Shown here piece after piece: positions 26,035 to 56,730 of a DNA stretch of 64,000 bases. The stretch is from a bacterium (GTDB lineage Bacteria; JAAXHH01). The DNA is taken from contig CBDETH010000008.1 in the NCBI GenBank assembly GCA_965242885.1, positions 150,286-214,285 on the forward strand, written 5' to 3'. Made by a program: the position numbers and the translations under genes. A model generated the notes under the pieces. The model was given only the letters and a program-made list of their open reading frames with translations, did not search any database and was not told the DNA's origin. Positions within the stretch are counted from its first letter, which is position 1; each line of letters begins with the position of its first letter.

Positions 26035-26045
26035 GGGAGGTTTCG

Positions 26046-29465: not shown

Positions 29466-29663
29466 ACTCGACTCCCACATGTACCAAATACGATGGCACC
29501 GTTTTCGTTGGTGGTATGGCACGCAATGAACTGGGGTTCCGCAGGCGCACAAAGTACCTTGCATCTGGATAACTGTCAAGGCGGCATACCGCCCCGCCCA
29601 TTACAGAAACTGGTCCCCAGGGAACGGGCTTGGGTCGACCGATTTGGAGAACCTGTTTTCGCT

Positions 29664-29692
29664 TTGACTAACGCCATTTCAAGATTTAGAAT
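29664..29692 (+). promoter_or_regulatory. Near-consensus sigma70 promoter (TTGACT-N17-TAGAAT) for the embedded ATPase gene
   Basis: -35 at 29664-29669 and -10 at 29687-29692, read directly, ~60 nt upstream of ATG 29753. Confidence 0.5.
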
Positions 29693-29752
29693 GCCATACA
29701 GCGTCTTTTACTGGTCGGTGAAGCGATTTCGAACGCATAAGGAATATGGATC

Positions 29753-31480: not shown

Positions 31481-31588
31481 GGCCTAGCAAAGACCGGGAG
31501 TCCGAAATCAGCCTTTACGCCACCCATCGGACCTAGCGAAGCCCAGTAGTAAAATCCAGACTCGTCAGACCGGAACGCAGGCAGAGAA

Positions 31589-32918: not shown

Positions 32919-34480
32919 CTCGTTCCTTCTATTTCTAATACGATTTCGTCGATGGCCGTGCGGAGTTCCTGCTGGTGCGCAACGATCCGGTCGATCTCCT
33001 CGTTGAGCGCCTTGATATCGATAGTCTCCCGGGTGTCCTCGGGCTCCACGTAACTCGAAACCGAGATATTGTAGTCGTTCTGAGCGATAGCCTTGTTGTC
33101 GATCAGGGCGGCGAAGTGTTCGATGTCGACGCGATCAGCGTACGCCTTGAGGATCTTCGCGCGGTGCTCATCGGCCAGCTTGTTCTTGTTGCCTGAACGG
33201 ACGAATTCGGAGGATGCCTCGATGAAGAGCGTCTTGTTGTCCGCCTTGCTTTTTTTCAGCACGATGATGCAGGTGGCGATGCTGGTTCCGAAGAAGAGAT
33301 CGGGGGGTAGCTGGATCACTGTGTCGATGTAGTTGTTTTCAATGAGATAGCGACGAATCTTCATTTCGGCTCCGCCGCGATACAGTACTCCTGGAAACTC
33401 GACTATGGCAGCTGTACCGCTGGTTGAAAGCCAGGAAAGCATGTGCATGACGAAAGCGAGATCGGCCTTGCTTTTGGGCGCCAAAACGCCTGCTGGAGAA
33501 AACCGCGGGTCGTTGATGAGGATCGGATTCGCGTCGCCGTCCCATTTGATCGAATAGGGCGGATTGGAGACTATGGCGTCAAACGGTTCATCGTCCCAAT
33601 GCGCCGGGTCGGTGAGTGTGTCTCCGAGGGCGATATCGAACCGCTCGTAATTGATGTCATGCAGGAACATGTTGATGCGGCAGAGGTTAAAGGTCGTGAG
33701 GTTTACCTCCTGCCCGAAGAAACCTTGGCGAACCTTCTCCTTCCCTAGCACCTTGGAGAACTTCAGCAGCAACGAACCCGAACCACAAGCCGGATCGTAT
33801 ACCTTGTTTACATCGTGCCGGCCGACGGTCGTGATTTCTGCGAGCAATTCGCTGACCTCCTGCGGGGTGAAAAATTCGCCGCCGGACTTGCCCGCGTTCG
33901 ATGCATACATCGTCATCAGGTATTCGTAGGCATCTCCGAAAGCGTCTATGGTAGAGTCGGCGTAATCCTGGAAACTCAGTCCGGCAATGGCGTCGAGCAG
34001 TCTAACCAGTTTACGGTTCCGCTGTTCCACCGTGGCGCCGAGTTTGGGCGAGTTTACGTCTAGGTCATCGAAGAGGCCCTTCAGGTCGTCCTCGCTCGCA
34101 GTGCCCTTTGCCGAGTTCTCGATATTTCTAAAGACCCTGGCGAGCGTTTCGTTCAGGTCCTGGTCTTGTCGCGCGGAAGCCGCCACACTGGCAAACAACT
34201 CGGAGGGCAGGATGTAAAATCCTTTCTCCTTTACCGTTTCGTCACGCCCCAACTCCGCATTTTCGTCCGACAGTTCTGCGTAATCGAAATCGGAGATGCC
34301 CCCTCGACGTTCGTCGTCGTTGATATAGGCGGTGAGGTTCTCGCTGATAAATCGGTAGAACAACATCCCCAGCACGTATTGCTTGAAGTCCCAACCGTCC
34401 ACGCTGCCCCGTAGATCATTGGCAATCTGCCAGATCGTGCGGTGCAGTTCTTCCCGATCTTGATGATTAGCGTGTGTCAT
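32915..34480 (-). CDS. hsdM: Type I restriction-modification methyltransferase subunit (HsdM)
   Basis: HsdM N-terminal domain plus N6-adenine MTase motifs (…DPACGSGS…, NPPY). Confidence 0.9.
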   Translation of the reverse strand: MTHANHQDREELHRTIWQIANDLRGSVDGWDFKQYVLGMLFYRFISENLTAYINDDERRGGISDFDYAELSDENAELGRDETVKEKGFYILPSELFASVAASARQDQDLNETLARVFRNIENSAKGTASEDDLKGLFDDLDVNSPKLGATVEQRNRKLVRLLDAIAGLSFQDYADSTIDAFGDAYEYLMTMYASNAGKSGGEFFTPQEVSELLAEITTVGRHDVNKVYDPACGSGSLLLKFSKVLGKEKVRQGFFGQEVNLTTFNLCRINMFLHDINYERFDIALGDTLTDPAHWDDEPFDAIVSNPPYSIKWDGDANPILINDPRFSPAGVLAPKSKADLAFVMHMLSWLSTSGTAAIVEFPGVLYRGGAEMKIRRYLIENNYIDTVIQLPPDLFFGTSIATCIIVLKKSKADNKTLFIEASSEFVRSGNKNKLADEHRAKILKAYADRVDIEHFAALIDNKAIAQNDYNISVSSYVEPEDTRETIDIKALNEEIDRIVAHQQELRTAIDEIVLEIEGTR

Positions 34481-34789
34481 TCAGCTTCCAATCCTATCTC
34501 GATGCTTGGTCTTTGGTGAGATCTCTTTGGGGTGTATATGACCGTCGCTGTCTGCCCACGCAGTCTTCACGAATACGAACAGTGGATTGTAGTCCTGTCG
34601 TGCCTGTTTCGTATCGAACAAACACCGGATCTAAGTACCGGCAACTCTGTCTGGATTTACAAGGGGTACAATATAGAGGTATCCAAACTTCTCGACAATC
34701 AAAAGACCTATGGACGGATGTGAAGCGGATCACCACCAGTTCGTATATTCGATTCACATTACATCGATTTCCATCGCTCACGTGGCCTA

Positions 34790-36043
34790 TCACCCGCCGA
34801 GCGCCCATCCCGTGGGTATCCCCATCACGCCATCACCCAGGTCTCGGATGTGAGGATCATTGGATAGCACCAGCGCCTGGAGGACGGGTTTGTCCAGGAT
34901 CTCATCCAAACGACGCAAATGGCGCGCATCCCTTTGCGAGACCTTTTCTTTGAATTTGATTTCGATAGGCACATAGCCGCTTTCGGTCTCGATCAGCAGA
35001 TCAACTTTCCGACCGTCGACTGTTCGCAGATGATGAAAATCAACGGGCAACCTCAGATTTCGCGCTTGCTTAAAGATCTCCACGATGATGGCACCTTCGA
35101 ATTCGGTACCCGTTGGCCGGGACCTGCGGTTGAGCAGTGCGCGTTGGACGCCTGGATCGAGGAAGTGTATTTTCGCTGCCTTGGAAAGGCGTTTGTTTCG
35201 GTTTCTGAACCACGGCTGTAACTGGATGATCTGGTAACTGATTTCGAGGTAGGAAACAAAACGAATGATCGTCCTGTGCGTCACGCTGGCGAGACGGGCC
35301 AGTTCGCTGATATTCAGCAAACCGCCAGCCAAACCGCCCAATGCCCGCAACATGCGTACATAGGGCACCAGGTCCCGAAGATTGGCCAGATCTCGAAGGT
35401 CTCTTTGCAGATACGTTCGCAGGTAGTCCTGTAGCCACCCGTACCGGTCCTCCCGGGACAGCGTGATATCGGAAACTACCGGCATGCCCCCGAATTCCAG
35501 GTAGTGATCGAGATGATCAACCGCTCTGGCGTACCTGTCGCATTGCTGGGGTATCCCTGATACGAGGATTTCAAGATCCCCCGATACAAGATACCGGACC
35601 AGGCGGGATTCCACGACCGGATCGTGCCAGGAATCGGTCATCATTTCCGGTATCGTGAGTGGATACAGTTCCATAATCGTGACGCGTCCAGCCAGGCTCT
35701 CCCGTATCTGCTCCATCAACAGGATCTGGCTGGATCCAAGCAGAATGGCACGGGCGTCGGTATACCGGTCGTACACCGCCTTGATGGATTCGACAATCGA
35801 TGGCGCTTTCTGAATTTCGTCCAGGATGACCCTGGGATAACGTTGGTACCACAGTGCCGCTGAAAGCGCAGTATAGTCCGGGCGCACGATCGGGTCTTCG
35901 AGCGAGACGAAACCGTATTCAGGAAACCCGGCCTGTACCAGGGTGGTCTTGCCTGTTTGACGGGCACCTGTCAATGCGATCAGTCGTCCCAGGCGGGTAT
36001 CTGCCTTCTGTTTCATCAAGGACAGCACAGTCCGGTTTTTCAT
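34790..36043 (-). CDS. AAA+ ATPase with a DUF4143 domain
   Basis: Walker A (GARQTGKTT) and the C-terminal DUF4143-like region; a common defence-island passenger. Confidence 0.7.
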   Translation of the reverse strand: MKNRTVLSLMKQKADTRLGRLIALTGARQTGKTTLVQAGFPEYGFVSLEDPIVRPDYTALSAALWYQRYPRVILDEIQKAPSIVESIKAVYDRYTDARAILLGSSQILLMEQIRESLAGRVTIMELYPLTIPEMMTDSWHDPVVESRLVRYLVSGDLEILVSGIPQQCDRYARAVDHLDHYLEFGGMPVVSDITLSREDRYGWLQDYLRTYLQRDLRDLANLRDLVPYVRMLRALGGLAGGLLNISELARLASVTHRTIIRFVSYLEISYQIIQLQPWFRNRNKRLSKAAKIHFLDPGVQRALLNRRSRPTGTEFEGAIIVEIFKQARNLRLPVDFHHLRTVDGRKVDLLIETESGYVPIEIKFKEKVSQRDARHLRRLDEILDKPVLQALVLSNDPHIRDLGDGVMGIPTGWALGG

Positions 36044-36329
36044 GTCACAAACTCATTTTGGCGTATTATTATGCTCTTTATGATAAATTATACGCTGTTA
36101 ATTCGATAAAGCAACCGAAATTTACGTTGAAAACACTCGTGTGGCGATACGAAGCCACAGGAGGGAGGGGAATTCAAGCGTGGGAAATGGTGGTCTGAAC
36201 CGGGGGATGCGTGCCTGGGTGTTCTGTGGGGGGAACGGCACCACGTTTTCATGGAAAAGACGAGATCGATTCCTGGCGGAATCAGTAATCAGTTATCCAT
36301 CGTTGTCGACGACGCGACCGTCTGCGTCA

Positions 36330-37919
36330 TTAGTCAGGCTGTCCCGCCGGAACTGGAGTCAGAGGGGGTTCAGTCACGGTCAACATCCCCGTACCCGATA
36401 CTCCGTCCATTGCGGCTTTGATCGTGGCTTCTCCAGCCGAAACACCCATAGCGAGACCAGAGGTGTCAATCGTCGCAACAGATTCATCCGAACTTGTCCA
36501 CGTAAACGCCACATCCGGGACCGACATCCCGTCAGCCGCCTTGGCCACTGCTTCGAGCTGCCGGGCTTGGCCTTCCTCGACTGTCGTCTCCGATGGAGTC
36601 ACTTCGATGATCGCTACCTCCGGCTTGCCGTCCGTCAGTTTCTGGATTGTATTGGGCACACTGTCAACCGAAGTGACCTCATCGATCTGCTTTGTGACAC
36701 GGACGTTTAACTCCGGGAACTTGTTAACCGTCGGCGCGATGCGGGAATCCCACGAGCCGACGCCTTTGTTGTACCGTTCTACCGCCTGCCGAAGCGACTT
36801 GCCCACGTCGATATAGTGCCCGGCAAAAACCGTCAGCCGTTCGTACATCTCCTTGCCCAGGTCGCTGATCTGCCGGGCGGTCTCCGCGACGCGGATCTGC
36901 TGCCAAGACATCTCCACGGCCTTGAGAAGCGCCAGCAGGGCGGGCGGCGTGACGATCACCACGTTCTTCTCGAGGGCCCGGTCCGTTAGCCCGGGTTCCC
37001 GCTCGACGGCGGGGATGAAAGCGAATTCGGGCAAGACCATCACCACCATGTCCGGCGTAGAGGCCAGGACGCTCCAGTACTCTTTCCTGGCCAGGGAGTC
37101 CACGTGACTTTTTACCTGGCTGACATGGCGATCGAACGCGGCGGACCTGGATTCGTCGTCGTCCGTCTCGAAGGCTTCCATAAGCGCCGTCAGTGACACC
37201 TTGGAATCGAGAATGACCGTCCGGTCCTGCGGCAGATGGACGATCACATCGGTTCGGATCCGTTCGCCTTCGCTGTCGAAGCTGTCCTGCACCGTGAAAT
37301 CGATATCCTTACTAAGGCCCGAAAGCTCCAGCACGCGCTCGAGCTGCGTTTCGCCCCAGCGTCCGCGCACGTCGGGCCGCTTGAGCGCGTTGGAAAGCGT
37401 CTGGGCCTCGCTGGCAAGTTCCTTGTTGGTCTGCATGAGGTTCAGCATCTGGGTGCGGAATTCACCGGCGTTTTCCGCCCGCGCCTTGTCCAGCGACACG
37501 ATTTTCTCCGATAGGGGCTTGACCAGTTTCTCGACGGCTTCCTGGCGTGCTTTTAACGATTCCTCGGCGTTTGCCTTGAACGATTCCTGCTGCGACTTCA
37601 GGACTTCCGACGACAGGGCCTTGAAGGTGTCCTTAAACCGCTTCTCGACCTCGTCCCGCTCGCCGAGGCGTTCCTGCGCATTGGTGAGTTTCTGAAGCAG
37701 TTCGGCCCGTTCAACTTCCAGCTTCCGGACTTCCTCCAGTGACTTCCCCGCTTCGGCCAGTTGCTCGCGCACGACGCCCAGTTTGGTCTCCATGGCCGCC
37801 TTCTCGCCGCTGAGCGTATAGATCCGGCTGCTGTTTCTTAAACTCCAGACCAGCACGCCTGCCGCCAGCGCCAGGCATCCCAGGAGCGCGATGAGCAATA
37901 TGATCGTCAGTGTGTCCAT
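36330..37919 (-). CDS. RmuC-family protein (membrane-anchored, coiled-coil, PD-(D/E)xK-like) with a C-terminal Big_2 Ig-like domain
   Basis: N-terminal TM, long coiled coil, RmuC core (…RPDVRGRWGETQLERVLELSG…), then …EVTPSETTVEEGQARQLEAVAKAADG…ATIKA… (Big_2-like). Confidence 0.6.
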   Translation of the reverse strand: MDTLTIILLIALLGCLALAAGVLVWSLRNSSRIYTLSGEKAAMETKLGVVREQLAEAGKSLEEVRKLEVERAELLQKLTNAQERLGERDEVEKRFKDTFKALSSEVLKSQQESFKANAEESLKARQEAVEKLVKPLSEKIVSLDKARAENAGEFRTQMLNLMQTNKELASEAQTLSNALKRPDVRGRWGETQLERVLELSGLSKDIDFTVQDSFDSEGERIRTDVIVHLPQDRTVILDSKVSLTALMEAFETDDDESRSAAFDRHVSQVKSHVDSLARKEYWSVLASTPDMVVMVLPEFAFIPAVEREPGLTDRALEKNVVIVTPPALLALLKAVEMSWQQIRVAETARQISDLGKEMYERLTVFAGHYIDVGKSLRQAVERYNKGVGSWDSRIAPTVNKFPELNVRVTKQIDEVTSVDSVPNTIQKLTDGKPEVAIIEVTPSETTVEEGQARQLEAVAKAADGMSVPDVAFTWTSSDESVATIDTSGLAMGVSAGEATIKAAMDGVSGTGMLTVTEPPLTPVPAGQPD

Positions 37920-37929
37920 GTGAAGATTT

Positions 37930-38544
37930 CTATCCTTTTATCACTTCAAGTAAGATGATTCTTGTTTCCTTGCAGAACTGTTCCAATAGTAGAGGAGAAA
38001 AACGACTCGACAACATCATTTTACCTGGTGTAATCGAATTGACTTTAGCTCCATAATGCCTTCGAACCACCTCATCAAATCTTTTTCGTGTTCTTGCATT
38101 TCCGTGGGCGATGTGATTTCTTACTTTCCTTAAATCGGATATAAAACTCCCATATATAGTTATAGTATTGATAAAGTGTTCATCTGCGGGAAACAGGTTT
38201 TCCAGGTTTTTTTTGATATCCGACGCTCGCCCCCATCTGAGCTGAATTCTGCTGTTGGAACTTCTCTCATATTCCAACATCGCTACACGAGCTCTTTTAA
38301 AGCTTCTTGTAGGACGGTGTCTGAGTAGCTGCGGAGTCGACCCGTCGCAGTAATTTGTACCGCATATCATCCGACAAGCTGAATCCTCAAATATGACCTC
38401 CAAAAGAGAGAATAGACGTACAACTATCATTTCGGCCAAGTAAATACGAGGAAGACTATCTAATGAATTTAAACGGGTTACAAGAGTTAATGCAGTTTCA
38501 GTTGTGTGACGGATTCTGTCAGCCTGTGGATGTAGAGTTGACAT
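37930..38544 (-). CDS. HEPN-like protein (Rx4H motif RNHIAH)
   Basis: 204-aa, all-alpha prediction by eye, with a C-terminal-half KVRNHIAHGN motif matching the HEPN Rx4-6H consensus; 5 nt downstream of the DUF262 gene. Confidence 0.4.
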   Translation of the reverse strand: MSTLHPQADRIRHTTETALTLVTRLNSLDSLPRIYLAEMIVVRLFSLLEVIFEDSACRMICGTNYCDGSTPQLLRHRPTRSFKRARVAMLEYERSSNSRIQLRWGRASDIKKNLENLFPADEHFINTITIYGSFISDLRKVRNHIAHGNARTRKRFDEVVRRHYGAKVNSITPGKMMLSSRFSPLLLEQFCKETRIILLEVIKG

Positions 38545-38549
38545 TGTAA

Positions 38550-39548
38550 CTACAAAAACCTGCTGATATAATTGGAACGAACTTTCCGACTAGCAATCCG
38601 TTGAGTACTAGCCCTACAAGCATCTGCAAAATCAACATCCACTTTAGGGCGATCACTTAGTGGCTTATCTGAGTTAAACCTTTCGTCGATCTCAAATAGA
38701 GCTTCTTCTAGTTTCCTGCCCTTAGCACCCGAGTTCGAGTCCAGCGCAAGTACCAAAGAGAAAAACACAGGTTTTCTTGAGAAAATCGTATCGCGGATTG
38801 ACGAAGGTGATAACGAGACAATCCTATCAAACACCGAGTCCAGCCTCTTTTGGATTTCTGGAGCTTCGGCAAAGGACTCGTCATTGTCGGCATAGAGTTT
38901 CTTTAACCTGGAATTTGAGAAATCTGATAACCCCTCAATCATATTCAGAATGATGTCAGAGATAAACTCAACTTCTTGCATACGTGCGATGTTGTTCGCT
39001 GTGAATACTCTTAAATCTCTCCACAGAGATAACCGAGATGCTGCTTCACGTAAGCAAAACTGTTTAAACTCCCCACTAAAGTCTGCGTTACGCTTTTCTT
39101 GCAGGTTAAGAGTCTTAGCAACAGAATTCAAACGTCCAAAAACCTCAATAACATCTGCATCCGAAGCTCCTAGAAGCCACCCACCAGATAGTTTTGTTTC
39201 ACGAAATACTCTTTTTTGATTTGTTGAGAGCATTTCATAGGTCACCTTGCCTTGATGTACAGGATGATATGCAGCGTACTCACCGCTGATATATTCCAGA
39301 ATTGCTCGGATACGTTGCTGACCATCGACTACTTCTCTAAGGCTCCTATCCTGTTCTAGATCAACAATGTGCCTAAAGTAAAGAGTGGGAACTGGTTTCT
39401 GTTCAAACAGCGTATTAAGAAGGTACGACTTCTGGGGTATCGTCCACACAGAACGCCGTTGGTACCATGGATTTAACTTTAGCTCCTTGTGTTTCTCCCA
39501 GTTAACAAGATCTTGTACAATCAAAGGTTCATAATCTACACGATCCAT
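38550..39548 (-). CDS. DUF262 (ParB/Srx-like, DGQQR motif) protein
   Basis: …REVVDGQQRIRAILEY… is the DUF262/GmrS-like signature. Confidence 0.7.
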   Translation of the reverse strand: MDRVDYEPLIVQDLVNWEKHKELKLNPWYQRRSVWTIPQKSYLLNTLFEQKPVPTLYFRHIVDLEQDRSLREVVDGQQRIRAILEYISGEYAAYHPVHQGKVTYEMLSTNQKRVFRETKLSGGWLLGASDADVIEVFGRLNSVAKTLNLQEKRNADFSGEFKQFCLREAASRLSLWRDLRVFTANNIARMQEVEFISDIILNMIEGLSDFSNSRLKKLYADNDESFAEAPEIQKRLDSVFDRIVSLSPSSIRDTIFSRKPVFFSLVLALDSNSGAKGRKLEEALFEIDERFNSDKPLSDRPKVDVDFADACRASTQRIASRKVRSNYISRFL

Positions 39549-40024
39549 GTTCTTCTCCTCCAGTTTTGTCTTTGATACAGTACTACACGATGTTCACATC
39601 GTACCAAAGGTATTTAGTTGGTTTTAGTAGAGACAATGGAACTCAGATTTGCCCTGTCAATAAACTAATACTCATATAATCTTACACATCAACTTGACAC
39701 GGGTTTCCAAATACTTGTGATTTCACCGTTGTTCGGATTTACGATCGGTATTAAGTCTAAGAATTACCAGGTATCTCATTACGGAACATACTTGAATCAA
39801 TCCTCCTATAATGCCAAACACGAGTTGATAATTCGATCAACTCGCTATTCTCATTTAAAATCTAAAATACATAAATGTCTTATAAGCATGACATCTCAAT
39901 TGAAAGGTATTTGCGTAGTTCCTTTGGGATGATACCCCTGTGTACCCACTACCGACAATCGAAAATGCGGTACAAACTGAGTTTCCTAGCGTTTAAACGA
40001 CAATTGCTAATTTTAACTCTACGA

Positions 40025-41359: not shown

Positions 41360-41374
41360 CTGGAAGCGCTCCCA

Positions 41375-41464
41375 TGGACGAGTTCCGTCGAACGACGACT
41401 CACGTGGACGGGTTCCTTCGAACGACTACTCCTATGGACGAGTTCCGTCGAACGACGACTCACG
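41375..41464. repeat. Three tandem ~30-nt repeats (tggacgagttccgtcgaacgacgactcacg) upstream of the SixA-like gene
   Basis: Direct reading. Confidence 0.8.
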
Positions 41465-49242: not shown

Positions 49243-49267
49243 TCGAATTGCCTGCGAAAGCAACGCG

Positions 49268-49339
49268 TGCCTGAATGGCGACCGAGCCCGCGCCTGAATG
49301 GCGACCGAGCCCGCGCCTGAATGGCGACCGAGCCCGAGT
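49268..49339. repeat. Three tandem 24-nt repeats (gcctgaatggcgaccgagcccgc) downstream of the esterase gene
   Basis: Direct reading. Confidence 0.8.
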
Positions 49340-49702
49340 GCCGGATTGTAGTTTTTTCTCCTCAAATATCAGAAAGCCCGTAACTCCCCCTGACGCAATA
49401 GTATACCGTCCGTCTGTCCGGTGAATGTCCCCCGCCCGCCCCCGAACGAGCCTCATCCAACAGCCGTTCCTCGCAACCCGTACGTTTACAATAACTTTCG
49501 GTTTTCTCGGCGCGCCGGCACCGGGCTAATGCGGATAATTTGCGCCAAATTCCCGGACTCTGTCGGAACAAAAAACCTGTTGACATATTCCGCTCTTAAC
49601 TAAACATTAGTTTTGTACATATTTCATAACTTTCAACCGTGCAGGATCCGAACATTCCTGCATGGTTTAGGCCGTCCGGAAGGACGGAGAAAGGCTTTTC
49701 TC

Positions 49703-50032
49703 ATGACCGTCTCCAACATTCCCCAGTGCTGCGGCCAGTCCATGTTTCTCGTGACCGGCGATCGTCCCTACTGGAACTGCCCGTTGTGCGGAAACCGGCT
49801 GGACCGGGAATGCACTGCCGTTTCATCGCGCGGGAACGGGTGCGAGCACCCGGATGAACCGGAATCCGGCGGAAATCGGGTCGAAAACCCCGAAGATGGG
49901 GCCACGGTTTCGGTTCCCGTTACGGACTTCGAGCCGAGGTGCTGGAAGTGCGGCCGCATGCTGGGCAAGTACATCTCCCGCCCCTGGAGCGTCCGGTGCC
50001 GCAGGTGCAAGGCAAACAACCAGGCACAATGA
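49703..50032 (+). CDS. Small Cys-rich zinc-ribbon protein
   Basis: Four CxxC pairs (CCGQ…CPLCGN…CWKCG…CRRC); AGGAcGGAGAAAGG RBS-like sequence upstream. Confidence 0.35.
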   Translation: MTVSNIPQCCGQSMFLVTGDRPYWNCPLCGNRLDRECTAVSSRGNGCEHPDEPESGGNRVENPEDGATVSVPVTDFEPRCWKCGRMLGKYISRPWSVRCRRCKANNQAQ

Positions 50033-50046
50033 AAGGAGCTAAGGCG

Positions 50047-50090
50047 ACCACTGCAGTAACGGCCACTGCAGTAACGGCCACTGCAGAAAA
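50047..50090. repeat. 15-nt x3 tandem repeat (ccactgcagtaacgg)
   Basis: Direct reading. Confidence 0.8.
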
Positions 50091-50124
50091 AAGGAAGCAA
50101 ATCGCGTTTTTTTGAAAAACCCGC

Positions 50125-50153
50125 TTGACAGATATGCTATACACACGTATAGT
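50125..50153 (+). promoter_or_regulatory. Near-consensus sigma70 promoter TTGACA-N17-TATAGT with an upstream T/A-rich UP-like element
   Basis: -35 at 50125-50130 and -10 at 50148-50153, read directly. Confidence 0.55.
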
Positions 50154-50194
50154 ACTGTCATGCTGCCCGTGCCAGGAGCGCGGGCGTCACTGAA

Positions 50195-50297
50195 AACCGC
50201 ATCAGAATACCCTCGCGTCCCTTAGCGGACCCGCACCCCGCGGACCTTCAAGCGTCCCCGTGCCACTTCTGATCCACCTACGGCACGGGGATTTTTT
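50195..50297 (+). promoter_or_regulatory. Conserved ~80-nt leader element (copy 1) ending in an intrinsic terminator (CCCCGTGCC–17 nt–GGCACGGGG plus T6) that abuts the ATG of the downstream gene
   Basis: Terminator stem read directly; the core 50195-50274 is ~95% identical to 57627-57707. Confidence 0.55.
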
Positions 50298-50648
50298 ATG
50301 TCCTTTCCCGACAAAACGATTCGCTCGAACACACGGCCGGCGGCGCGCCTGGAAGCACTACGCGACTGGGTGCTCGCCCGCTGCATCGCGCTTTTCACCG
50401 CTCTACCGGGCTCGAAGCATGAGCCGGAGAAAGTCAAAATGCCCGAAAACATCTCAGTCTGGATCGTCGTCATCGGCGTCCTGACAGCACTCTGGATTTT
50501 CATCTTCAAGTTCATCGCTCCCTTTGTCGACCGCATGACCATGCGCGAGGTCCGCCTGTCGAAGATCGAACGGGACATCGAGAACCTGACCGCCAAGATC
50601 GATCTGATCTACGAGGTCGTGCTCGACCGGCACAGGGAGCAGGAATGA
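50298..50648 (+). CDS. Small membrane protein (one TM plus C-terminal coiled coil; holin/spanin-like?)
   Basis: Hydrophobic stretch ISVWIVVIGVLTALWIFIF and heptad-like C-terminus. Confidence 0.4.
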   Translation: MSFPDKTIRSNTRPAARLEALRDWVLARCIALFTALPGSKHEPEKVKMPENISVWIVVIGVLTALWIFIFKFIAPFVDRMTMREVRLSKIERDIENLTAKIDLIYEVVLDRHREQE

Positions 50649-50751
50649 TGGGGCATCGGCAACCGTATCGTTCACCGCAGTACACAAAGGTCTTCCCTCT
50701 CCGAAGTCTGCGCCCCTCGACGCCGGGGAGGGAAGACAAGGAGGTTTACAC

Positions 50752-51132
50752 ATGAAATCATGGCCGTATTTCCCGAACCAGGTCCTTTCCTCGCCGGACA
50801 CCGGCCGGCACGAAATGGACGAGCGCTTCATGCTCCGGCTCGTGCTGCTGCGCCAGGAGCTCGGTTTCCCGCTCATCATCACCTCGGCGTACAGGTCGCC
50901 GGCGCACAACGCGAAGGTGGGGGGCCGTCCCCGTTCTGCGCACCAGGCCGGCCGGGCCGTGGACATCGCCATCTCGGGCGACAAGGCGCACCGGCTCGTT
51001 CGCATGGCGCTCCTATTCGGTTTCACCGGTATCGGCATCCGGCAGCGGGGAGACTTCCGAAGCCGCTACGTGCACCTCGACGATCTCGACAAGGCGCCGG
51101 GCATACCCCGTCCGGCAATATGGAGCTATTGA
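50752..51132 (+). CDS. Peptidase M15_3-family zinc D-Ala-D-Ala carboxypeptidase-fold protein (phage endolysin-like / YcbK-like)
   Basis: SAYRSPAHNAKVGG…SAHQAGRAVDI (H-x6-D) and a distal YVHLD His. Confidence 0.7.
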   Translation: MKSWPYFPNQVLSSPDTGRHEMDERFMLRLVLLRQELGFPLIITSAYRSPAHNAKVGGRPRSAHQAGRAVDIAISGDKAHRLVRMALLFGFTGIGIRQRGDFRSRYVHLDDLDKAPGIPRPAIWSY

Positions 51133-51181: not shown

Positions 51182-54100
51182 ATGCACACCATGAAAGGAA
51201 ATGTCATGTTTCGCGTACTACTGACTCTTCTGCTGCTCGCGACCGGACCGGGACAGGCCGCGCGCGGGGCAGTGCCAGGGTCTCCCTTCGGCCCGGCGCC
51301 TCCGCAGAACCAGGCGCCGCAGACTGTGGACTACATCGACGTCGGGACGCTGTACGTCGGAGGCTCCTCGGCGAAGGTTAACGCTACCTCGTACTTTTCA
51401 GATCCCAACGGCGACACGCTCACCTATTCGGTGAACAACCCGAGTCCGGAGGTCGCCACGGTGAGCATCTCGGGAAGCACGGTCACGATCGCGCCCGTGG
51501 CTATCGGCACGACCGGCAAGATCGTCGTCACGGCCACGGACCCGGGCGGCCTGACTGCCACCCAGGACTTCACCGCCACGGTGGAGAACCCGCCGCCGTC
51601 TCAGCCGAACAGGGCGCCCACGGCCGTGGGGTCCATCTCCAATGTGACCTTGCAGGTCGGCGGTTCCTCGGCCACACGAAGCGTGTCGGGCAAGTTCTCC
51701 GATCCTGACGGCGACACGCTCACCTATTCGGTAAACGACCCGGACACATCCACCGTCACCGTAAGCATATCGGGAAGTACCGTCACGATCGCGCCCGTGG
51801 CCGCCGGCACGACCGGCAAGATCGTCGTCACGGCCACGGACCCGGGCGGCCTCACCGCTACCCAGGACTTTACCGCCACGGTGAGCAATCCGCCACCACC
51901 GCCTCTGACGCCGAACAGGGCGCCCACGGCCGTGGAGTCTATTGGAGATCGGACGCTGACAGTTGGCGGGAATCCTGCTACAGTCAATGTTTCAAGCTAT
52001 TTCTCCGATCCCGACGATGACACCCTCACTTACTCTGTGAATTCACCAACTCCGACCATAGCGACAGTGAGCATATCGGGAAGCACGATGACCATGACCC
52101 CGGTATCTGCCGGAACTACTGCCAGAATCATCGTTACTGCCGAGGATCCCGGTGGGTTGACCGCTACCCACGACTTCAACATCAAGGTCAACGGGCCCCC
52201 TGTAGCCTCAGGATCCATAGCACACCGGACAGTGGACGTGGGCGATAGCGCCTTCACCGTTGACGTTTCCGGCAAGTTCTCCGATCCCAATAGTGACATC
52301 CTCACCTTCTCCGCCTTGTCCTCGAACAAGGCCGCGGCAACGGTCAGCGAGTCGAGCGGGACCCTCACCGTCACACCGAAGACAGGCGGCACGACCACCA
52401 TCACCGTCACTGCGACTGACAGCGGTGGACTCTCGGCATCGTTGTCCTTCACCGTCAAGGTCAACCGAGAGCCCACAACGCGCGGCTCCCTGGCGAACCG
52501 GACGGTGGACGTGGGCGACAGCGCCTTCAGGGTGCCTGTATCCGGCAAGTTCTCCGATCCCGACGGCGACGATCTCGACTTCTCAGCGACGTCCTCCCCC
52601 ATGTCGGTGGCCACGGTCAGTGAGTCGAGCGGGACCGTTACCGTCACGCCGAAAGCCGGGGGCACTACCACCATCACCGTCACCGCGTCGGACGGCAGGC
52701 TTTCCGCGTCACTGACCTTTACCGTCACGGTCAACCGCGGGCCTACCACCACGGGTATACTCACGGATCGGACAGTCGATGTGGGCGACAGCGCCTTCGA
52801 CGTCGCGGTATCGGGCAAGTTCTCCGATCCCGACGGCGACGATCTCGACTTCTCAGCGACGTCCTCCCCCACGTCGGTGGCCACGGTCAGTGAGTCGAGC
52901 GGGACCGTTACCGTCACGCCGAAAGCCGGGGGCACCACCACCATCACCGTCACCGCGTCGGACGGCAGACTTTCCGCGTCGCTGACCTTTACCGTCACGG
53001 TCAACCGCGGGCCGACCACCACGGGTACACTGTCGAATCGGACCGTGAACCTGGGCGACAGCGCCTTCGACGTCGCGGTATCGGGCAAGTTCTCCGATCC
53101 CGACGGCGACGATCTCACCTATTCCGCCACGTCCTCCGCCACGACGGTGGCCACGGTCAGCGAGTCGAGCGGGACCGTTACCGTCATGCCGAAAGCCGGG
53201 GGCACCACCACCATCACCGTCACCGCGTCGGACGGCAGACTTTCCGCGTCACTGACTTTCACCGTTACCGTCAGCGTCTCCGGCATCGAAAATCAATCGC
53301 CGACAGTCTCATGGACTATTCCGGATCAACCTCTGGAGCGGAATGGTTCGGCCGGATCGGTAATCCTCTCGAGCAAGTTCTCGGATCCCGATAACGATGC
53401 CTTGACTTATTCGGCCACATCGTCGGACACATCGGTAGCAATGGTGAGCGTATCGGGCAGCGTATTGACGACCACCCCGGGCGTTAAAGGCTCTTCGACA
53501 ATCACGGTCATAGCGACGGACCCTGGAGGCTTGACCGCCTCGCAGACCTTCACGGCAACGGTGAGCCGCAAGCCAGTAACGAGCGGAACCATACCAAAGA
53601 TTATACTGGAGGAGACTGATCAGTCCCGTTCGATCGCCGTGGCAGTCTATTTTTCGGAACCCGACGGCGAAGCGCTCACCTATTCGGCGGTCTCGTCGAA
53701 TTCCGATATCGCGAGAACGAGTGTTACTGGTAACACGGTAACGGTCTCCAGGGTTTCTCCAGGAACCGGTGTGGTATGGGTTACAGCCACAGACCCCGGT
53801 GGCCTGACCGTTGTGCAGTCCATGACTATACTGGTAACGAACAGGGCTCCGGTGACGAAGACCAGTATCACGAACCAGACGCTCTACCTGAGCGATGACT
53901 TTAGAAGAGTCGATTTGTCCGGTATTTTCTCGGATCCGGACGGTCAGACGCTCGCCTTTACGGCTACCTCATCGGATACAGGTAAAGTGACGGTTTCAGC
54001 CGGAGGTTCCACCCTGCTGATCCGGCCCGTGACTCGCGGATCGACGACGGTTACCGTGCGGGCGACCGACCCGGGGAATCAATACGTCGAACAAACCTTC

Positions 54101-56641
54101 ACCGCCACTGTGGCCAATCAATACCCACAGACGGTAGAGCCAGCCATCGGAAACCAGACGCTGTACATGCTTGGCGGTTCCCGGATGATCAACGCAGTCC
54201 TTTATTTCTCCGATCCCGACGGCGACAAGCTTTCCTACAAGGTTACTTCTCCAAACCCGGAGATCGTCACTGTTAGTATTGCGAGCGGCACGGTCACGCT
54301 TACGCCGGTTTCTTTAGGACTAACGGGAAAGTTCCGCGTGACGGCTACGGATCCGAGCGGACTGACCGCCGACCAGGACTTCAATGTCACTGTCGTTGCC
54401 GGGTCTCCGCCGGCACCGACGAACCAGGTTCCCGTAGCTAACGGAACCATAGAGGTCGACAGCCTCTATCAGCTTGGCTCGTCTGTCGTAATCGATGTGA
54501 CGTCCTACTTCTCAGATCCCGATTCTACCGATGTTCTTGCCTATTCGGTTAGGTCTCAGGATCCGGGGATCGTGATCGTAAGTATATCCGGCAGTTCGGT
54601 CAAGATCACGCCGAAGGGGGCCGGAAAGACGGGCAAGATCGTAGTTACGGCCCGGGACCCGGCCGGACTCACCGTCGACCAGGAATTCGTTGTCACGGTC
54701 ATAGCCGGAGCCCCGCCGGTACCACCAAACCGCTATCCGATTGCCGTTGGAACCATAATAGTCGACACGTTGTACGTGGAAGGTCCCTCGATCAAGATCG
54801 ACGTGACTTCCTACTTCAACGACCCGGACGAAGACATACTCTCCTACTCGGCGATTTCCCATAGCCCTGCGATGGTCGAGGCGAGTGCGGTGGGTAGTGA
54901 GGTGACACTAAAACCAGTCATGGCTGGACCGACAGGTAAGATCGTAGTTACGGCCAGCGACCCGGACGGACTCACCGCCGACCAGGAATTCAACGTCACT
55001 GTATTGGCCGGCGCACCGCCGACGCCAACGAACCATGCACCTGAAATACGGGAATCGCTGACAAAATGGGTCGTGACGATTGGAGGAGGGACGGTGAAAT
55101 TAAACGTGGCACCGTACTTCCGAGACGTGGACAACGACTCGCTCACCTACCAACTCGATGCCCAGGGCGCGGGGAAAGCTACGTTGACCATCGCGGACAG
55201 CACCCTGTCTATCGAACCTCTGGCGTTGGGTACGACGGGCAAGAACCTGCTTCGTGCGGTCGATCCCGCCGGGCTCTTCGTCCAACAGGACTTCGTGGTC
55301 TTCGTGGTCACGAATCTAAGTCCCGATACCCTGAAGACCATTCCGGACGATACGCTCACGGTCGCAAAAGGATCGGTGAAGCTGGACCTGTCGACTTTCT
55401 TCTTCGACCCCGACCAGGACACGCTGATGTACACGGCGATATCGTCGAACACCGGTGCCGCGACCGTAAGCGTTACCAGCAACACGTTGACCATGACACC
55501 GGTGAAAAAGGACATGTCTTCGACGGTCACGGTCACTGCTTCCGATGGCGATCTGTCCGTGGCGCAGGAGTTCGAAGTTACAGTGAACAACTCGCGGCCT
55601 GAAGTGTTGGCGACCATTACCGACCAGACGTTGACCGCCGGAGACGAAGACAAGTCCGTAGACCTGTCGACCCATTTCTCCGACGCGGACGGGGACACGC
55701 TGTCCTACGCAGCCGTATCGTCCGACACCAGCGCCGTAACGGTTTCTGTCAGCGACGACTCGCTTGCCGTCAGGCCACGTGCGGTCGGATCATCGACTGT
55801 CGGAGTCACAGCTGCCGATGACGACAGCGCTTCCGTCACCCAGTCCTTCCAAGTCGCGGTAGGGGATGAGGATGAACCACCACCGCCCCCGGATTCCTGC
55901 CCGGCCGAAATCACGAACGCACCCATCCCGGACCAGACGCTGATCGTGGGCGCGGGCACGACGGAGATCGACCTGACGCAACACTTCGAAAACATCGATC
56001 AGGACGATATCGAAATCACGGTCAAGTCACCGAGTCCGGGTATTGCCACGGCGGCTATCGAGGGGACCAATCTGAAAATCGATCCGGTGGCGGCCGGCCA
56101 GATCGACACCGTGACGGTTACTATTTCGGATACGGCCGCTAGTGATCCATGCGATCCCGTGTCACTGTCGTTCATGGTCACGGTGGAGAATCCCGGTCTC
56201 TATCCCTGGTCGGTCTCCGGTGATCACGTCTACCGGCTTACCGGCAACGTGGGCATCGGCGTGGAAGTTCCGGACCAGAAACTCGTCGTGGACGGGACGA
56301 TAAAGGCGGAGGGGTACCGGCTGAGGATGATCCCTGCCGATTACGTGTTCGAGGAGGGGTACGACCTCCTGTCTCTGGATGAAGTGGCGTCGTATATCCA
56401 GAATCATGGTCACCTGCCCGGCGTGGCCTCGGGCGCGGAGATGAAGGCCAACGGCCTGGGCATCAGCCGGATGCAGACCACGCTCCTGGAGAAAATCGAG
56501 GAACTGTCGCTCTACATCATCGCGCAGCACGAACAGCTTCGTGTGCAGGGCGGCCGCCTCGCCGCGCAGCGGCAGAAGCTGGAGATTCAAAAGACGCAGG
56601 CAAGTAAGCTGGAGCAACGGCTCAGGAGATTGGAAAGATGA
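51182..56641 (+). CDS. Giant secreted protein: signal peptide, ~17 tandem cadherin-like/He_PIG Ig domains (DPDGDTLTYS… repeats), and a C-terminal tail-fibre-like domain plus coiled coil
   Basis: Repeated ~95-aa units with SDPDGD.LTYS, VTATDPGGLTA…F..TV; the C-terminus …GNVGIGVEVPDQKLVVDGTIKAEG… is followed by a heptad coiled coil. Confidence 0.7.
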   Translation: MHTMKGNVMFRVLLTLLLLATGPGQAARGAVPGSPFGPAPPQNQAPQTVDYIDVGTLYVGGSSAKVNATSYFSDPNGDTLTYSVNNPSPEVATVSISGSTVTIAPVAIGTTGKIVVTATDPGGLTATQDFTATVENPPPSQPNRAPTAVGSISNVTLQVGGSSATRSVSGKFSDPDGDTLTYSVNDPDTSTVTVSISGSTVTIAPVAAGTTGKIVVTATDPGGLTATQDFTATVSNPPPPPLTPNRAPTAVESIGDRTLTVGGNPATVNVSSYFSDPDDDTLTYSVNSPTPTIATVSISGSTMTMTPVSAGTTARIIVTAEDPGGLTATHDFNIKVNGPPVASGSIAHRTVDVGDSAFTVDVSGKFSDPNSDILTFSALSSNKAAATVSESSGTLTVTPKTGGTTTITVTATDSGGLSASLSFTVKVNREPTTRGSLANRTVDVGDSAFRVPVSGKFSDPDGDDLDFSATSSPMSVATVSESSGTVTVTPKAGGTTTITVTASDGRLSASLTFTVTVNRGPTTTGILTDRTVDVGDSAFDVAVSGKFSDPDGDDLDFSATSSPTSVATVSESSGTVTVTPKAGGTTTITVTASDGRLSASLTFTVTVNRGPTTTGTLSNRTVNLGDSAFDVAVSGKFSDPDGDDLTYSATSSATTVATVSESSGTVTVMPKAGGTTTITVTASDGRLSASLTFTVTVSVSGIENQSPTVSWTIPDQPLERNGSAGSVILSSKFSDPDNDALTYSATSSDTSVAMVSVSGSVLTTTPGVKGSSTITVIATDPGGLTASQTFTATVSRKPVTSGTIPKIILEETDQSRSIAVAVYFSEPDGEALTYSAVSSNSDIARTSVTGNTVTVSRVSPGTGVVWVTATDPGGLTVVQSMTILVTNRAPVTKTSITNQTLYLSDDFRRVDLSGIFSDPDGQTLAFTATSSDTGKVTVSAGGSTLLIRPVTRGSTTVTVRATDPGNQYVEQTFTATVANQYPQTVEPAIGNQTLYMLGGSRMINAVLYFSDPDGDKLSYKVTSPNPEIVTVSIASGTVTLTPVSLGLTGKFRVTATDPSGLTADQDFNVTVVAGSPPAPTNQVPVANGTIEVDSLYQLGSSVVIDVTSYFSDPDSTDVLAYSVRSQDPGIVIVSISGSSVKITPKGAGKTGKIVVTARDPAGLTVDQEFVVTVIAGAPPVPPNRYPIAVGTIIVDTLYVEGPSIKIDVTSYFNDPDEDILSYSAISHSPAMVEASAVGSEVTLKPVMAGPTGKIVVTASDPDGLTADQEFNVTVLAGAPPTPTNHAPEIRESLTKWVVTIGGGTVKLNVAPYFRDVDNDSLTYQLDAQGAGKATLTIADSTLSIEPLALGTTGKNLLRAVDPAGLFVQQDFVVFVVTNLSPDTLKTIPDDTLTVAKGSVKLDLSTFFFDPDQDTLMYTAISSNTGAATVSVTSNTLTMTPVKKDMSSTVTVTASDGDLSVAQEFEVTVNNSRPEVLATITDQTLTAGDEDKSVDLSTHFSDADGDTLSYAAVSSDTSAVTVSVSDDSLAVRPRAVGSSTVGVTAADDDSASVTQSFQVAVGDEDEPPPPPDSCPAEITNAPIPDQTLIVGAGTTEIDLTQHFENIDQDDIEITVKSPSPGIATAAIEGTNLKIDPVAAGQIDTVTVTISDTAASDPCDPVSLSFMVTVENPGLYPWSVSGDHVYRLTGNVGIGVEVPDQKLVVDGTIKAEGYRLRMIPADYVFEEGYDLLSLDEVASYIQNHGHLPGVASGAEMKANGLGISRMQTTLLEKIEELSLYIIAQHEQLRVQGGRLAAQRQKLEIQKTQASKLEQRLRRLER

Positions 56642-56730
56642 CATTTCGGCAGGATCCACATCCCGGGAACCGCAAAGCCCGGGAATCGCGAAGCACCAGG
56701 GTTTCCATTAACCGTAGAAAGGAGCAAGTC

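Follow-up and report, generated by a model that had tools for sequence, protein, structure and literature searches.

What does a leader RNA do when it starts at a near-consensus promoter and ends in an intrinsic-terminator-like hairpin whose U-tract runs straight into a start codon? Such an arrangement precedes a holin-like gene, an M15 endopeptidase gene and a giant-adhesin gene in a 64,000-nt stretch of bacterial contig CBDETH010000008.1 (hereafter the window, to which all coordinates refer; all features described lie on the + strand). A first-pass annotation had proposed an attenuator or riboregulator that controls this locus by conditional read-through. Based on the analysis below, we assign the element to an undescribed leader RNA family that is absent from Rfam 15. 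With moderate confidence, we favour a model in which it acts in cis as an attenuator and translation switch with two states, controlling a dispersed regulon of toxin, adhesin and lysis-cassette genes.

Promoter and leader of copy A

The promoter upstream of the holin-like gene (promoter A, 50107–50153) is as strong as had been noted at first pass. It comprises an UP-like tract at 50107–50119 with a T7 run (50107–50113) and an A5 run (50115–50119), a −35 element TTGACA (50125–50130), a 17-nt spacer and a −10 element TATAGT (50148–50153), and agrees with the sigma-70 consensus at 11 of 12 positions. In a promoter scan, sites matching at least 9 of 12 positions numbered 4 per 5 kb, versus 0.8 ± 0.9 in shuffled sequences. 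The promoter, including its spacer, is kept in 21 of the 35 copies of the RNA family described below. A consensus promoter is absent from the other 14, most of which come directly after the stop codon of the gene before them and lie ahead of a giant gene. Three tandem 15-bp repeats (CCACTGCAGTAACGG) are found at 50048–50090, about −112 to −70 of promoter A, and their conservation at other loci is only partial.

Transcription is predicted to start near 50160, which gives a leader of ~138 nt, somewhat shorter than the ~145 nt first estimated. The minimum free energy (MFE) of the copy A leader is −54.5 kcal/mol (z = −3.3), and 1 of 200 shuffled sequences folded equally well. A 21-codon leader peptide from ATG 50160 was considered and rejected, as other copies have no ATG at that site.

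The leader belongs to a conserved multi-copy family

The ~80-nt conserved core proposed at first pass is real. Positions 50195–50274 are repeated at 57627–57707 in the window (copy B) with 94% identity (E about 1e-28), and about 33 further copies were found, spread over 11 related MAG genomes and several contigs from metagenomes, which brings the family to ~35 copies across about a dozen uncultured bacterial genomes. The submitters of MAGs of this lineage gave them the label Latescibacterota or Gemmatimonadota. All copies are sense-oriented and lie directly 5' of a gene. Two pattern scans of genomes and metagenomes yielded 29 loci; 30 of 57 genome loci, 3 of 5 metagenome loci and one viral locus were discarded as chance matches in GC-rich DNA because the rest of the element was absent there. 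The two scans of viral contigs gave 0 matches and this 1 chance match, respectively. The search pattern fixed 21 of the 73 core positions, a bias that is partly removed by five further copies reached independently through homologues of the holin-like protein, in which the core is still nearly invariant. The nhmmer E-values of the copies range from 1e-26 to 1e-45. A lack of further copies would have spoken against a riboregulator; this objection falls away, as the element is conserved in many copies and is not a simple repeat.

No Rfam 15 model (4227 models) matched anywhere in the window at the gathering score, and at E ≤ 10 the region 49950–50450 gave no more than two matches, both at chance level (E 2.8 and 5.2). 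ARAGORN found no tRNA or tmRNA, and our literature search found no description of the element.

The mean pairwise identity of the core is 0.93, against 0.42–0.66 for the flanks, and 0.97 among five paralogues located 0.13–3.19 Mb apart on one chromosome, with flanks on both sides at 0.37–0.76. One might suppose that there is no switch, and that a conserved 5' UTR and promoter cassette was simply duplicated alongside RHS-type genes and kept uniform by gene conversion, with the hairpin serving as an mRNA stabiliser or as a terminator of upstream transcription. Such a history would suit recombination-prone paralogues like the RHS genes, and most copies do precede RHS-type genes and carry core helices without covariation. 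However, the borders are sharp, with 73 invariant nucleotides between diverged flanks in one genome, unlike conversion tracts, and unrelated genes are also headed by the element (the holin-like gene, a gene for a 157-aa protein and a zinc-ribbon gene). The structure of the 5' hairpin P0 is moreover preserved by compensatory changes, and mimics of the alternative pairing partners recur. We thus regard a mere copied cassette as improbable.

The core RNA is predicted to adopt two mutually exclusive folds

P0 (50164–50186) is a 5'-proximal hairpin in which 50164–50172 pairs with 50178–50186 around a CAGGA loop. It is the sole helix of the element that covaries, with three pairs changed on both sides (CG/UA, GC/AU) and many G-U changes. 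Downstream of P0, the MFE structures of shortened transcripts and an RNAalifold consensus predict that the invariant 73-nt core (50201–50273) forms an ON, or antiterminator, fold. For nascent transcripts ending at 50274 or 50282, the MFE structure (−36.5 kcal/mol) consists of P1 (AUCAGAA 50201–50207 with UUCUGAU 50267–50273) enclosing P2 (50217–50220 with 50227–50230) and P3/P3b. In P3, 50233–50236 pairs with 50260–50263, and in P3b, G50240 and 50242–50245 pair with 50254–50258. P3/P3b, which pairs GCAC..G.GGAC with GUCC.C..GUGC, occupies the whole 5' arm of the terminator in this predicted fold. In the full-length RNA, the terminator fold is more stable (−54.5 kcal/mol vs −36.7 kcal/mol for the ON fold), a gap of ~18 kcal/mol.

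Folding of shortened and full-length transcripts therefore yields the competing structures anticipated at first pass: in both copy A and copy B, the core fold and the expression-platform fold exclude each other, and both terminator and sequestor variants of the platform occur on one core. The complementarity between UUCUGAU in the terminator loop and AUCAGAA had also been recognised, although AUCAGAA is at 50201–50207 and not at 50203–50209. Its assignment as the attenuator helix holds in part, since P1 is the closing helix of the predicted nascent RNA, whereas the antiterminator proper would be P3/P3b.

Covariation, which the first-pass annotation had named as a check, is present in P0 and absent from the switch helices: P1, P2, P3 and the terminator helix show zero covariation among the copies, because the core is invariant. 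Substitutions in P1 still allow G-U pairing in 7 cells, one internal A-A break occurs, and the variable and indel positions map to the P2 loop, the P3b loop and the junctions. Several copies carry a CAGAA or AUCAGAA mimic in the 3' arm that would compete for the P1 3' strand, and some have duplicated P1 5' strands. A search through the holin-like protein gave no more diverged homologues for covariation analysis, as identity is 77% or higher in each of the 18 relatives. The P1, P2, P3 and terminator pairings are thus predictions of the folding models, together with these indirect patterns among the copies. The lack of stem covariation despite a divergent P0 points to sequence-specific recognition or to dual constraints.

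This last point bears on whether the three-way-junction core could be the aptamer of a small-molecule riboswitch, for example for a second messenger, in which the ligand stabilises P1/P3 and turns the genes on while the zinc-ribbon gene is a regulon member or encodes a DNA-binding factor. Closure of a junction by P1, with one core joined to either terminator or SD-sequestor platforms, is typical of riboswitches, several copies per genome are found, and junction nucleotides are among those conserved. Against this, no Rfam family matches, the stems do not covary although P0 shows that divergence is sufficient, the distribution is limited to one narrow clade, and the targets are toxins, adhesins and a lysis-type cassette instead of metabolic or transport genes; the gene content suggests no small ligand. 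A riboswitch is therefore rather unlikely in our assessment. Three known motifs were also considered and rejected by inspection: a CsrA-type GGA loop (the CAGGA loop of P0 is not conserved), an ANTAR hexaloop (the P2 loop varies in length) and a boxA-like sequence.

The proposed OFF hairpin abuts a probable start codon

The OFF structure (50256–50297) is an intrinsic-terminator-like hairpin, identified from sequence, folding and conservation in the copies. Its 9-bp stem, 17-nt loop and U6 tract running into ATG 50298 are all as first described. The arm CCCCGUGCC (50256–50264) pairs with GGCACGGGG (50282–50290) through 8 G-C pairs and 1 U-A pair, with one further U-A pair possible. The loop (50265–50281; 16–35 nt in other copies) houses the P1 3' strand, and the hairpin is followed by A50291, U6 (50292–50297) and ATG 50298–50300. 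A GC-rich stem with a direct U-tract is as expected of an intrinsic terminator, but the 17-nt loop is unusually large compared with the usual 3–8 nt or so. The hairpin is missing from a terminator scan because the scan takes loops of 3–8 nt only. Among the 34 copies with a readable 3' end, 29 have the stem followed by U5–8, and the other five have a hairpin without a U-tract.

The 3' arm of the hairpin also holds an SD-like GGGG(A). The spacing from GGGG to AUG is 6–7 nt in 26 of 29 copies, and in 23 of 29 the abutting AUG reads without a stop, and in frame, into the main ORF. In copy A, this AUG opens a poorly conserved 47-codon extension (50298–50438) in frame with the holin-like gene, and indels within such N-terminal extensions are multiples of 3. 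The exceptions to the open frame are L058 (frameshift), L051 (stop at codon 3) and L020 and L053 (short uORFs), and GGGGA is only a moderate SD, as real genes of this DNA use AAGGAG. The reading that ATG 50298 is no start, based on the L058 frameshift, the L051 stop and a strong internal SD, was dropped because the frame and spacing statistics favour a weakly constrained upstream start beside an internal one. ATG 50298 is thus probably the genuine start of a poorly conserved in-frame extension.

The fixed position of the AUG also speaks to the idea of a stand-alone small RNA family ("sibling sRNAs"), in which an abundant ~138-nt RNA acts in trans and its place before genes is incidental or reflects a dual role. 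The near-consensus promoter with its UP-like tract, the terminator 138 nt on, the stable 5' hairpin and the dispersed copies with an identical core would all fit. However, a promoter and terminator of its own are not found in every copy (14 of 35 have no consensus promoter and five have no U-tract), every copy has the sense orientation and is followed immediately by an ORF, and all are coupled to a downstream AUG whose distance is fixed and whose frame is that of the next gene. We consider a purely trans-acting RNA very improbable.

Genes downstream of the element

The holin-like gene (50439–50648) encodes 69 aa with one TM segment and a charged coiled tail, and was identified by conservation and by PHROG holin matches that are weak (E 0.002–0.008). 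It has its own SD, GGAGAAAG (GGAG), upstream of ATG 50439; conservation climbs sharply at M48 of the extended ORF, and its 18 homologues are annotated as 69 or 116 aa. It is followed by a 126-aa Peptidase_M15_3 endopeptidase gene (50752–51132; Pfam E = 3e-17) and, according to domain matches, by a gene for a secreted protein of 1819 aa with Big_9, cadherin-like and Big_2 repeats (51182–56641). The neighbours are chromosomal genes, syntenic at 75–93% identity in several species. Specific control of the holin-like/M15/giant-adhesin locus, as first proposed, does not hold, since the element heads dispersed RHS-toxin and other genes.

One of these is in the window itself. Copy B (57588–57735), identified by sequence match and two-state folding, is internal and has no promoter. 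It contains P0 (57588–57608), AUCAGAA at 57611–57617 and again at 57633–57639, the core (57633–57706) and a sequestor hairpin in which CCCCgUGC (57689–57696) pairs with GCAGGGG (57719–57725). The U-tract is absent, and AUG is at 57733–57735. This type of 3' end is common to the orthologous copies L057, L018, L055 and L062. From AUG 57733, the frame is open into a giant RHS-repeat protein (DUF6443 and RHS repeats; 57733–64000) and runs off the window, while the main start of the RHS gene is likely TTG 57847, before the signal peptide MRLFAALALAIGALSVSGQ.

Promoterless copies such as copy B raise the alternative of a processive antitermination RNA (put/EAR-like), whose core binds or modifies RNA polymerase so that it ignores adjacent and later Rho-dependent or intrinsic stops in genes of 6–7 kb, with internal copies reloading it. 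The 14 copies without a consensus promoter, most of them between an upstream stop codon and a giant gene, would be in the right place, and the five terminator-less copies still keep the core. The leaders 3' of the hairpin are long (100–300 nt), partly C-rich and G-poor, and an invariant primary sequence is expected of a polymerase-binding RNA. Nevertheless, the exact overlap between the core and the 5' arm of the terminator, together with the mimic strands, argues for a local exclusive switch, a hairpin still covers the SD-like/AUG region in copies that have no terminator, suggesting control at the level of translation, and no antitermination RNA in Rfam matches. Processive antitermination therefore seems to us a poor candidate.

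A zinc-ribbon protein as candidate effector

Upstream of promoter A lies a gene (49703–50032) for a 109-aa zinc-ribbon protein, which has two CxxC..CxxC ribbons separated by a long linker and a C-terminal motif PRCWKCGRMLGKYISRPWSVRCRRCKANN. A homologous gene is directly upstream of 14 copies, namely 12 promoter-bearing copies, L065 and L066, and three separate OY762445 loci are among them; no zinc-ribbon gene is found close to about 7 of the promoter-bearing copies. At L065, one copy of the RNA element also precedes the zinc-ribbon gene itself.

The C-terminal domain is a member of a ~60-aa zinc-ribbon family. Hhalign aligned the family profile with phage Mu Com at 82% probability (E = 1e-5, 28 columns), and Pfam Zn_ribbon_Com was matched by 9 of 40 relatives with a best E of 2e-4, although other ribbon models fitted equally well. 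The window protein itself had no Pfam, NCBIfam or PDB match at threshold, its AlphaFold2 model was unusable (pLDDT 49), and a word-index search gave only 6 close relatives.

Com activates translation of the Mu mom gene (PMC6483171). By analogy, we prefer the zinc-ribbon protein as the candidate for holding the ON fold; it may act on the leader as Com does on that of mom, although we put this forward tentatively. It is tempting to speculate further that protein and leader form a novel RNA–protein system of antitermination and translation activation. In this more doubtful proposal, a two-ribbon distant relative of Com would bind the 73-nt core, flip the terminator/start sequestor and, across the genome, turn on a regulon that comprises RHS polymorphic toxins, giant adhesins and the holin/M15 release cassette. 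If true, the regulator of at least one genome (L065) would be under its own switch, giving positive feedback and all-or-none expression.

Proposed model

We then propose a model for the element that builds on the observed sequence features, family, conservation pattern and gene contexts and on the two predicted folds, and in which we infer termination, switching with conditional read-through, translation from AUG 50298 and the effector. The near-consensus sigma-70 promoter with its UP-like tract would start transcription near 50160, and the nascent RNA would fold P0 first and then the three-way structure in which P1 closes P2 and P3/P3b. In this ON fold, the upstream GCAC..G.GGAC segment would hide the 5' arm of the terminator. 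Unless the ON fold is held, the more stable CCCCGUGCC/GGCACGGGG hairpin with U6 would form, end transcription and bury the SD-like GGGGA 6–7 nt before AUG 50298. When it is held, the polymerase would read through and the start site would be freed, so that the holin-like protein, the M15 endopeptidase and the giant adhesin could be made. At copy B, with its sequestor hairpin and no U-tract, the ON fold would allow the RHS toxin gene product to be made, and the same switch may head the dispersed RHS-type giant genes in related genomes.

Should the switch prove real, it would define a new leader-RNA family in a poorly studied uncultured lineage and would place giant RHS toxins, adhesins and a holin/endopeptidase cassette under linked control. 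One hairpin appears to gate both termination and the abutting start codon, and the linked zinc-ribbon protein is a concrete candidate partner. Metagenomes could also be searched for the regulon with the invariant 73-nt core as a handy sequence tag.

Comparison with known systems

In cargo and context, the locus resembles type 10 secretion. As described in PMC10847048 and PMC10109510, holin and peptidoglycan endopeptidase cassettes release large toxins, are tightly controlled and are expressed in specialised subpopulations. Here, too, holin-like and M15 endopeptidase genes adjoin giant toxin and adhesin genes, a likeness that does not extend to the RNA and in which the holin assignment is weak.

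Lambdoid late control (Q, PR', 6S RNA/tR', the holin S and the endolysin R) likewise combines a strong promoter and a short terminated transcript with a holin-like and endolysin-type pair and long structural-type genes, assigned here by sequence only, with the gene for a small zinc-binding protein just upstream. Lambdoid Q acts through DNA and a sigma-dependent pause. Inspection by eye of the initially transcribed region of copy A revealed no good −10-like element for such a pause, and the zinc-ribbon protein had no match at threshold to any Pfam or PDB family, hence none to a Q family there. Unlike lambdoid late control, the element has no prophage context, being chromosomal, syntenic across species and dispersed over 3 Mb, and the leader RNA itself is conserved even in promoterless copies.

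HK022 put and Bacillus EAR are also conserved structured RNAs, found in leaders and inside operons made up of long genes for surface polymers or surface proteins, with a terminator immediately downstream. The element matches neither in sequence or structure, and it physically overlaps its own terminator, which implies local competition, unlike put and EAR.

The Com-mom system of Mu is close in layout: a small zinc-ribbon gene is immediately upstream of the regulated gene (14 copies, including copy A), a hairpin buries the start region with a conserved RNA element just 5' of it, and the C-terminal ribbon aligns with that of Com. The Com binding motif is CC(N)2-3GAG. However, the zinc-ribbon protein resembles Com weakly and no more than it resembles other zinc ribbons, the present proteins carry a pair of ribbons with a long linker, and the inhibitory hairpin doubles as a terminator.

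Terminator/antiterminator leaders (riboswitch platforms, RAT/BglG-LicT and ANTAR) differ from the element in that it has no Rfam match, its core is invariant and does not covary, its targets are toxin, adhesin and lysis-type genes, and its U-tract runs straight into a conserved AUG. With these leaders it shares a sensor fold that uses nucleotides of the terminator 5' arm, an upstream segment that mimics the terminator 3' arm, and one sensor that is joined, copy by copy, to a terminator or an SD-sequestering hairpin.

The leader of copy A and its two predicted folds

Reading of positions 49700-50700 bore out the first-pass annotation of the leader element at 50115-50297 (copy A): promoter, leader, hairpin, U6 tract and abutting ATG are all present on the + strand. 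A T7 tract (50107-50113) and an A5 tract (50115-50119) precede the -35 TTGACA (50125-50130), a 17-nt spacer and the -10 TATAGT (50148-50153). This promoter matches the consensus at 11/12 positions; across 5 kb the consensus scan found four sites of at least 9/12, where shuffled sequence gave 0.8 ± 0.9. The terminator hairpin pairs a 5′ arm CCCCGUGCC (50256-50264) with a 3′ arm GGCACGGGG (50282-50290) across a 17-nt loop, followed by A50291, U6 (50292-50297) and directly by ATG (50298-50300). It escaped the terminator scan solely because of its loop, since that scan takes only 3-8 nt. Folding of the 140-nt leader gives -54.5 kcal/mol (z = -3.3). Between the stop of the upstream zinc-ribbon gene (49703-50032, +) and the promoter lies a tandem repeat of 3 x 15 bp (CCACTGCAGTAACGG, 50048-50090); other short tandem repeats occur at 49266-49336 (3 x 23 bp, downstream of an esterase-like gene), 1285-1386 (3 x 34 bp) and 41369-41464 (3 x 30 bp).

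Folding for competing structures, as the annotation had proposed, yielded two mutually exclusive predicted folds. The consensus from RNAalifold agrees with RNAfold predictions for nascent transcripts truncated at 50274 or 50282 on an antiterminator (ON) fold in which helix P1 (AUCAGAA 50201-50207 with UUCUGAU 50267-50273) encloses hairpin P2 (GUCC/GGAC) and an extended hairpin of P3 (GCAC 50233-50236 with GUGC 50260-50263) and P3b (G50240 and 50242-50245 with 50254-50258). Here the terminator 5′ arm is wholly paired with an upstream mimic of the 3′ arm, except for C50259 and C50264. With the 3′ arm present, RNAfold prefers the terminator (OFF) fold (-54.5 vs -36.7 kcal/mol), as it does by a smaller gap (-40.2 vs -36.6 kcal/mol) for a second window copy (copy B, 57588-57735); to persist, the ON fold must therefore rely on kinetics or on a factor. 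The AUCAGAA/UUCUGAU complementarity had been noticed correctly, with AUCAGAA placed two bases too far right. The alternative helix proposed from it is predicted as P1, but covariation cannot confirm it, because the core helices never vary.

Indirect sequence support for P1 comes from its substitutions (seven G-U-compatible cells, a single internal A-A break and some mismatches at the helix ends), from CAGAA/AUCAGAA mimics in the 3′ arm able to pair with UUCUGAU (B-type copies, loci L029, L045 and L044, and the second copy of locus L066) and from duplication of its 5′ strand, present twice in copy B (57611-57617, 57633-57639) and three times in the second L066 copy. In L066, the triplicated strand reads CAUCAGAAAA x3 (17950-17985), and an extra AUCAGAA in the terminator loop (18040-18070) can pair with UUCUGAU.

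An invariant core shared by a narrow lineage

The search for further copies suggested by the first reading found them both in the window and in other genomes. Rfam 15 gave no match at the gathering score or at E ≤ 10, and no tRNA or tmRNA was found. The core of copy B (57627-57707) is 94% identical to 50195-50274; ORF 56638-57558 stops before it and a giant ORF follows. Metagenome contigs scanned for an exact 21-mer yielded two true homologues. In one genome per species, a gapped pattern matched 57 loci, of which 27 have the whole element and 30 are chance matches. The true loci derive from 11 MAG genomes labelled by their submitters as Latescibacterota, Gemmatimonadetes/Gemmatimonadota or only "bacterium". 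Several element-bearing loci are syntenic with the window locus at 75-93% nucleotide identity, so this is one narrow lineage and a chromosomal locus rather than an obvious prophage. The complete chromosome OY762445 carries five copies, at 0.13, 0.71, 1.69, 3.18 and 3.19 Mb. Five further copies, reached through homologues of the holin-like protein rather than the DNA pattern, still have a nearly invariant core, which partly offsets the ascertainment bias introduced by the pattern scans. An nhmmer profile found no further diverged copies in the sequence searched.

The same promoter recurs in 21 of 35 copies, along with its T/A tract and a large part of its spacer; most of the 14 others follow the stop codon of the upstream gene and are therefore operon-internal. 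P0, a 5′-proximal hairpin of variable sequence, is the only helix to show compensatory changes: three pairs switch between CG and UA or GC and AU, and G-U intermediates are numerous. The 73-nt core (50201-50273) has a mean identity of 0.93, or 0.97 among the five OY762445 paralogues, while its flanks reach 0.37-0.76. The little substitution and indel variation it shows falls in two short stretches (in the window copy, CUUAGC and CUUCAAGC) and at junctions, exactly where the predicted fold has its loops and junctions. A passive conserved UTR is an improbable reading, fitting this anatomy less well than a two-state leader. A GC stem with U5-8 ends 29 of the 34 copies with a readable 3′ end, and five copy-B orthologues have a CCCCgUGC/GCAGGGG hairpin without a U-tract. 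Processive antitermination is likewise improbable and stand-alone sRNAs slightly more so; both suit the anatomy more poorly than the two-state leader.

In L002 (1480-1530, -), L037 and L044, the promoter lies within a perfect 15-nt inverted repeat, TTGACAGATATACTA...TAGTATATCTGTCAA, extending from -35 to about +10; most other copies retain just TGACAG...CTGTCA. A DNA-binding regulator may use this repeat as its operator.

The start codon next to the U-tract

The AUG abutting the U-tract was at first doubted. Against it stand a 2-nt insertion in L058, a stop at codon 3 in L051 and a GUG plus 38 codons in L020 and L053; the conserved proteins start internally with canonical SDs (GGAGAAAG-N7-AUG 50439; AAGGAG in other families), and only there does conservation rise sharply. 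Three further counts favour a real start. The GGGG-to-AUG distance is 6-7 nt in 26/29 copies; the AUG frame is open into the main ORF in 23/29, while the other two usually stop within 10-60 codons; and within three gene families the indels that set the extensions apart span 1 to 35 codons, always multiples of three. The abutting AUG is thus probably used, and we infer that initiation there would yield either an N-terminal extension under weak constraint or a coupled upstream ORF. In that case the 3′ arm of the hairpin would serve both termination and sequestration of the start site, which would explain the five copies with a hairpin but no U-tract.

In most copies the 40-80 nt that immediately follow the hairpin appear rich in C and poor in G (e.g. 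CCGCAACAAUCCUCACCUCGUACGACAAACCACGAUCACGCC), as at 50298-50340, 57736-57800 and in homologous leaders. Such a stretch would suit a Rho-loading site, provided that it stays untranslated.

Together, we consider it probable that the element is a cis-acting two-state leader, both attenuator and start-site sequestor, and that it stands for a new RNA family with a dispersed toxin/adhesin/lysis-cassette regulon. It is of interest chiefly for its effector, for a single hairpin put to two uses and for the biology under its control.

Genes around the element

Copy A is followed by genes for a holin-like protein (69 or 116 aa, one TM, weak PHROG holin matches), a Peptidase_M15_3 endopeptidase (E = 3e-17), an 1819-aa Big_9/cadherin-like protein and a 306-aa protein sharing the C-terminal domain of the latter. 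Control of a holin-like/M15/giant-adhesin locus, as first proposed, agrees with these neighbours but does not cover all copies. Copy B precedes an RHS giant ORF (open from AUG 57733 to the window end, DUF6443 + RHS repeats), and others precede RHS-type giants with the same YDF..VDYFSG N-terminus or a 157-aa protein. A mechanically listed 533-aa ORF (57555-59156, +) is spurious: it overlaps copy B and is read in another frame than the genuine RHS ORF.

The C-terminal module shared by the 1819-aa (56226-56530) and 306-aa (57134-57441) proteins has 75-77% nucleotide identity and a VYRLxGNVGIGV...LVVDG.IKAE motif followed by a coiled coil; it presumably resembles tail-fibre-type C-termini. Elsewhere, 26000-40000 is a low-GC defence island (GC 0.41-0.58, against 0.63-0.68 outside it) with type I R-M genes for HsdR (26388-29579), two HsdS (31589-32918) and HsdM (32915-34480), an AAA_15/AAA_21 ATPase, a DUF4143 ATPase, RmuC, a RiboL-PSP HEPN protein and a GmrSD-like nuclease.

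A linked zinc-ribbon protein and comparison with known systems

A gene for a protein of 109-135 aa with two zinc ribbons lies directly upstream of 12 promoter-bearing copies, including three separate OY762445 loci, and also in L065 and L066. In L065 one element copy also precedes the zinc-ribbon gene, and the likely operon is element, zinc ribbon, element, holin-like, M15. Ahead of it (L065 1-3467) stand two LuxR-type response-regulator genes (Response_reg + GerE) and a 165-aa gene; the first of its element copies comes with a TGGTATAAT-type promoter of its own and without P0.

Relatives over the full length occur in this lineage only (6 matches among 5.8e9 proteins). The C-terminal ribbon falls within a wide family of ~60-aa proteins that share the motif TDxxPRCWRCxRxLAxxxxRPWxxxCxRCKAxN and number 276 representatives at E ≤ 1e-3. 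These proteins (P0034-P0174; locus L067) are unannotated and lie in phage-like gene clusters, one adjoining a CsrA gene; they also occur in Arthrobacter phages as hypothetical proteins, e.g. OQ938578 1770-1871. In a profile comparison, the zinc-ribbon family aligned with the ribbon of phage Mu Com at 82% probability (E = 1e-5); the Pfam Com model matched weakly, no better than other ribbon models. As effector, the zinc-ribbon protein is our tentative first choice; a small ligand comes second and seems unlikely.

On mom mRNA, Com binds a hairpin adjoining the translation-inhibition structure and switches translation on (PMC6483171). The layout here, with a putative Com-family member, is analogous in gene order and predicted RNA. 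At the level of genomic context only, genes for a holin-like protein and an M15 endopeptidase beside those for giant toxins also recall type 10 secretion cassettes.
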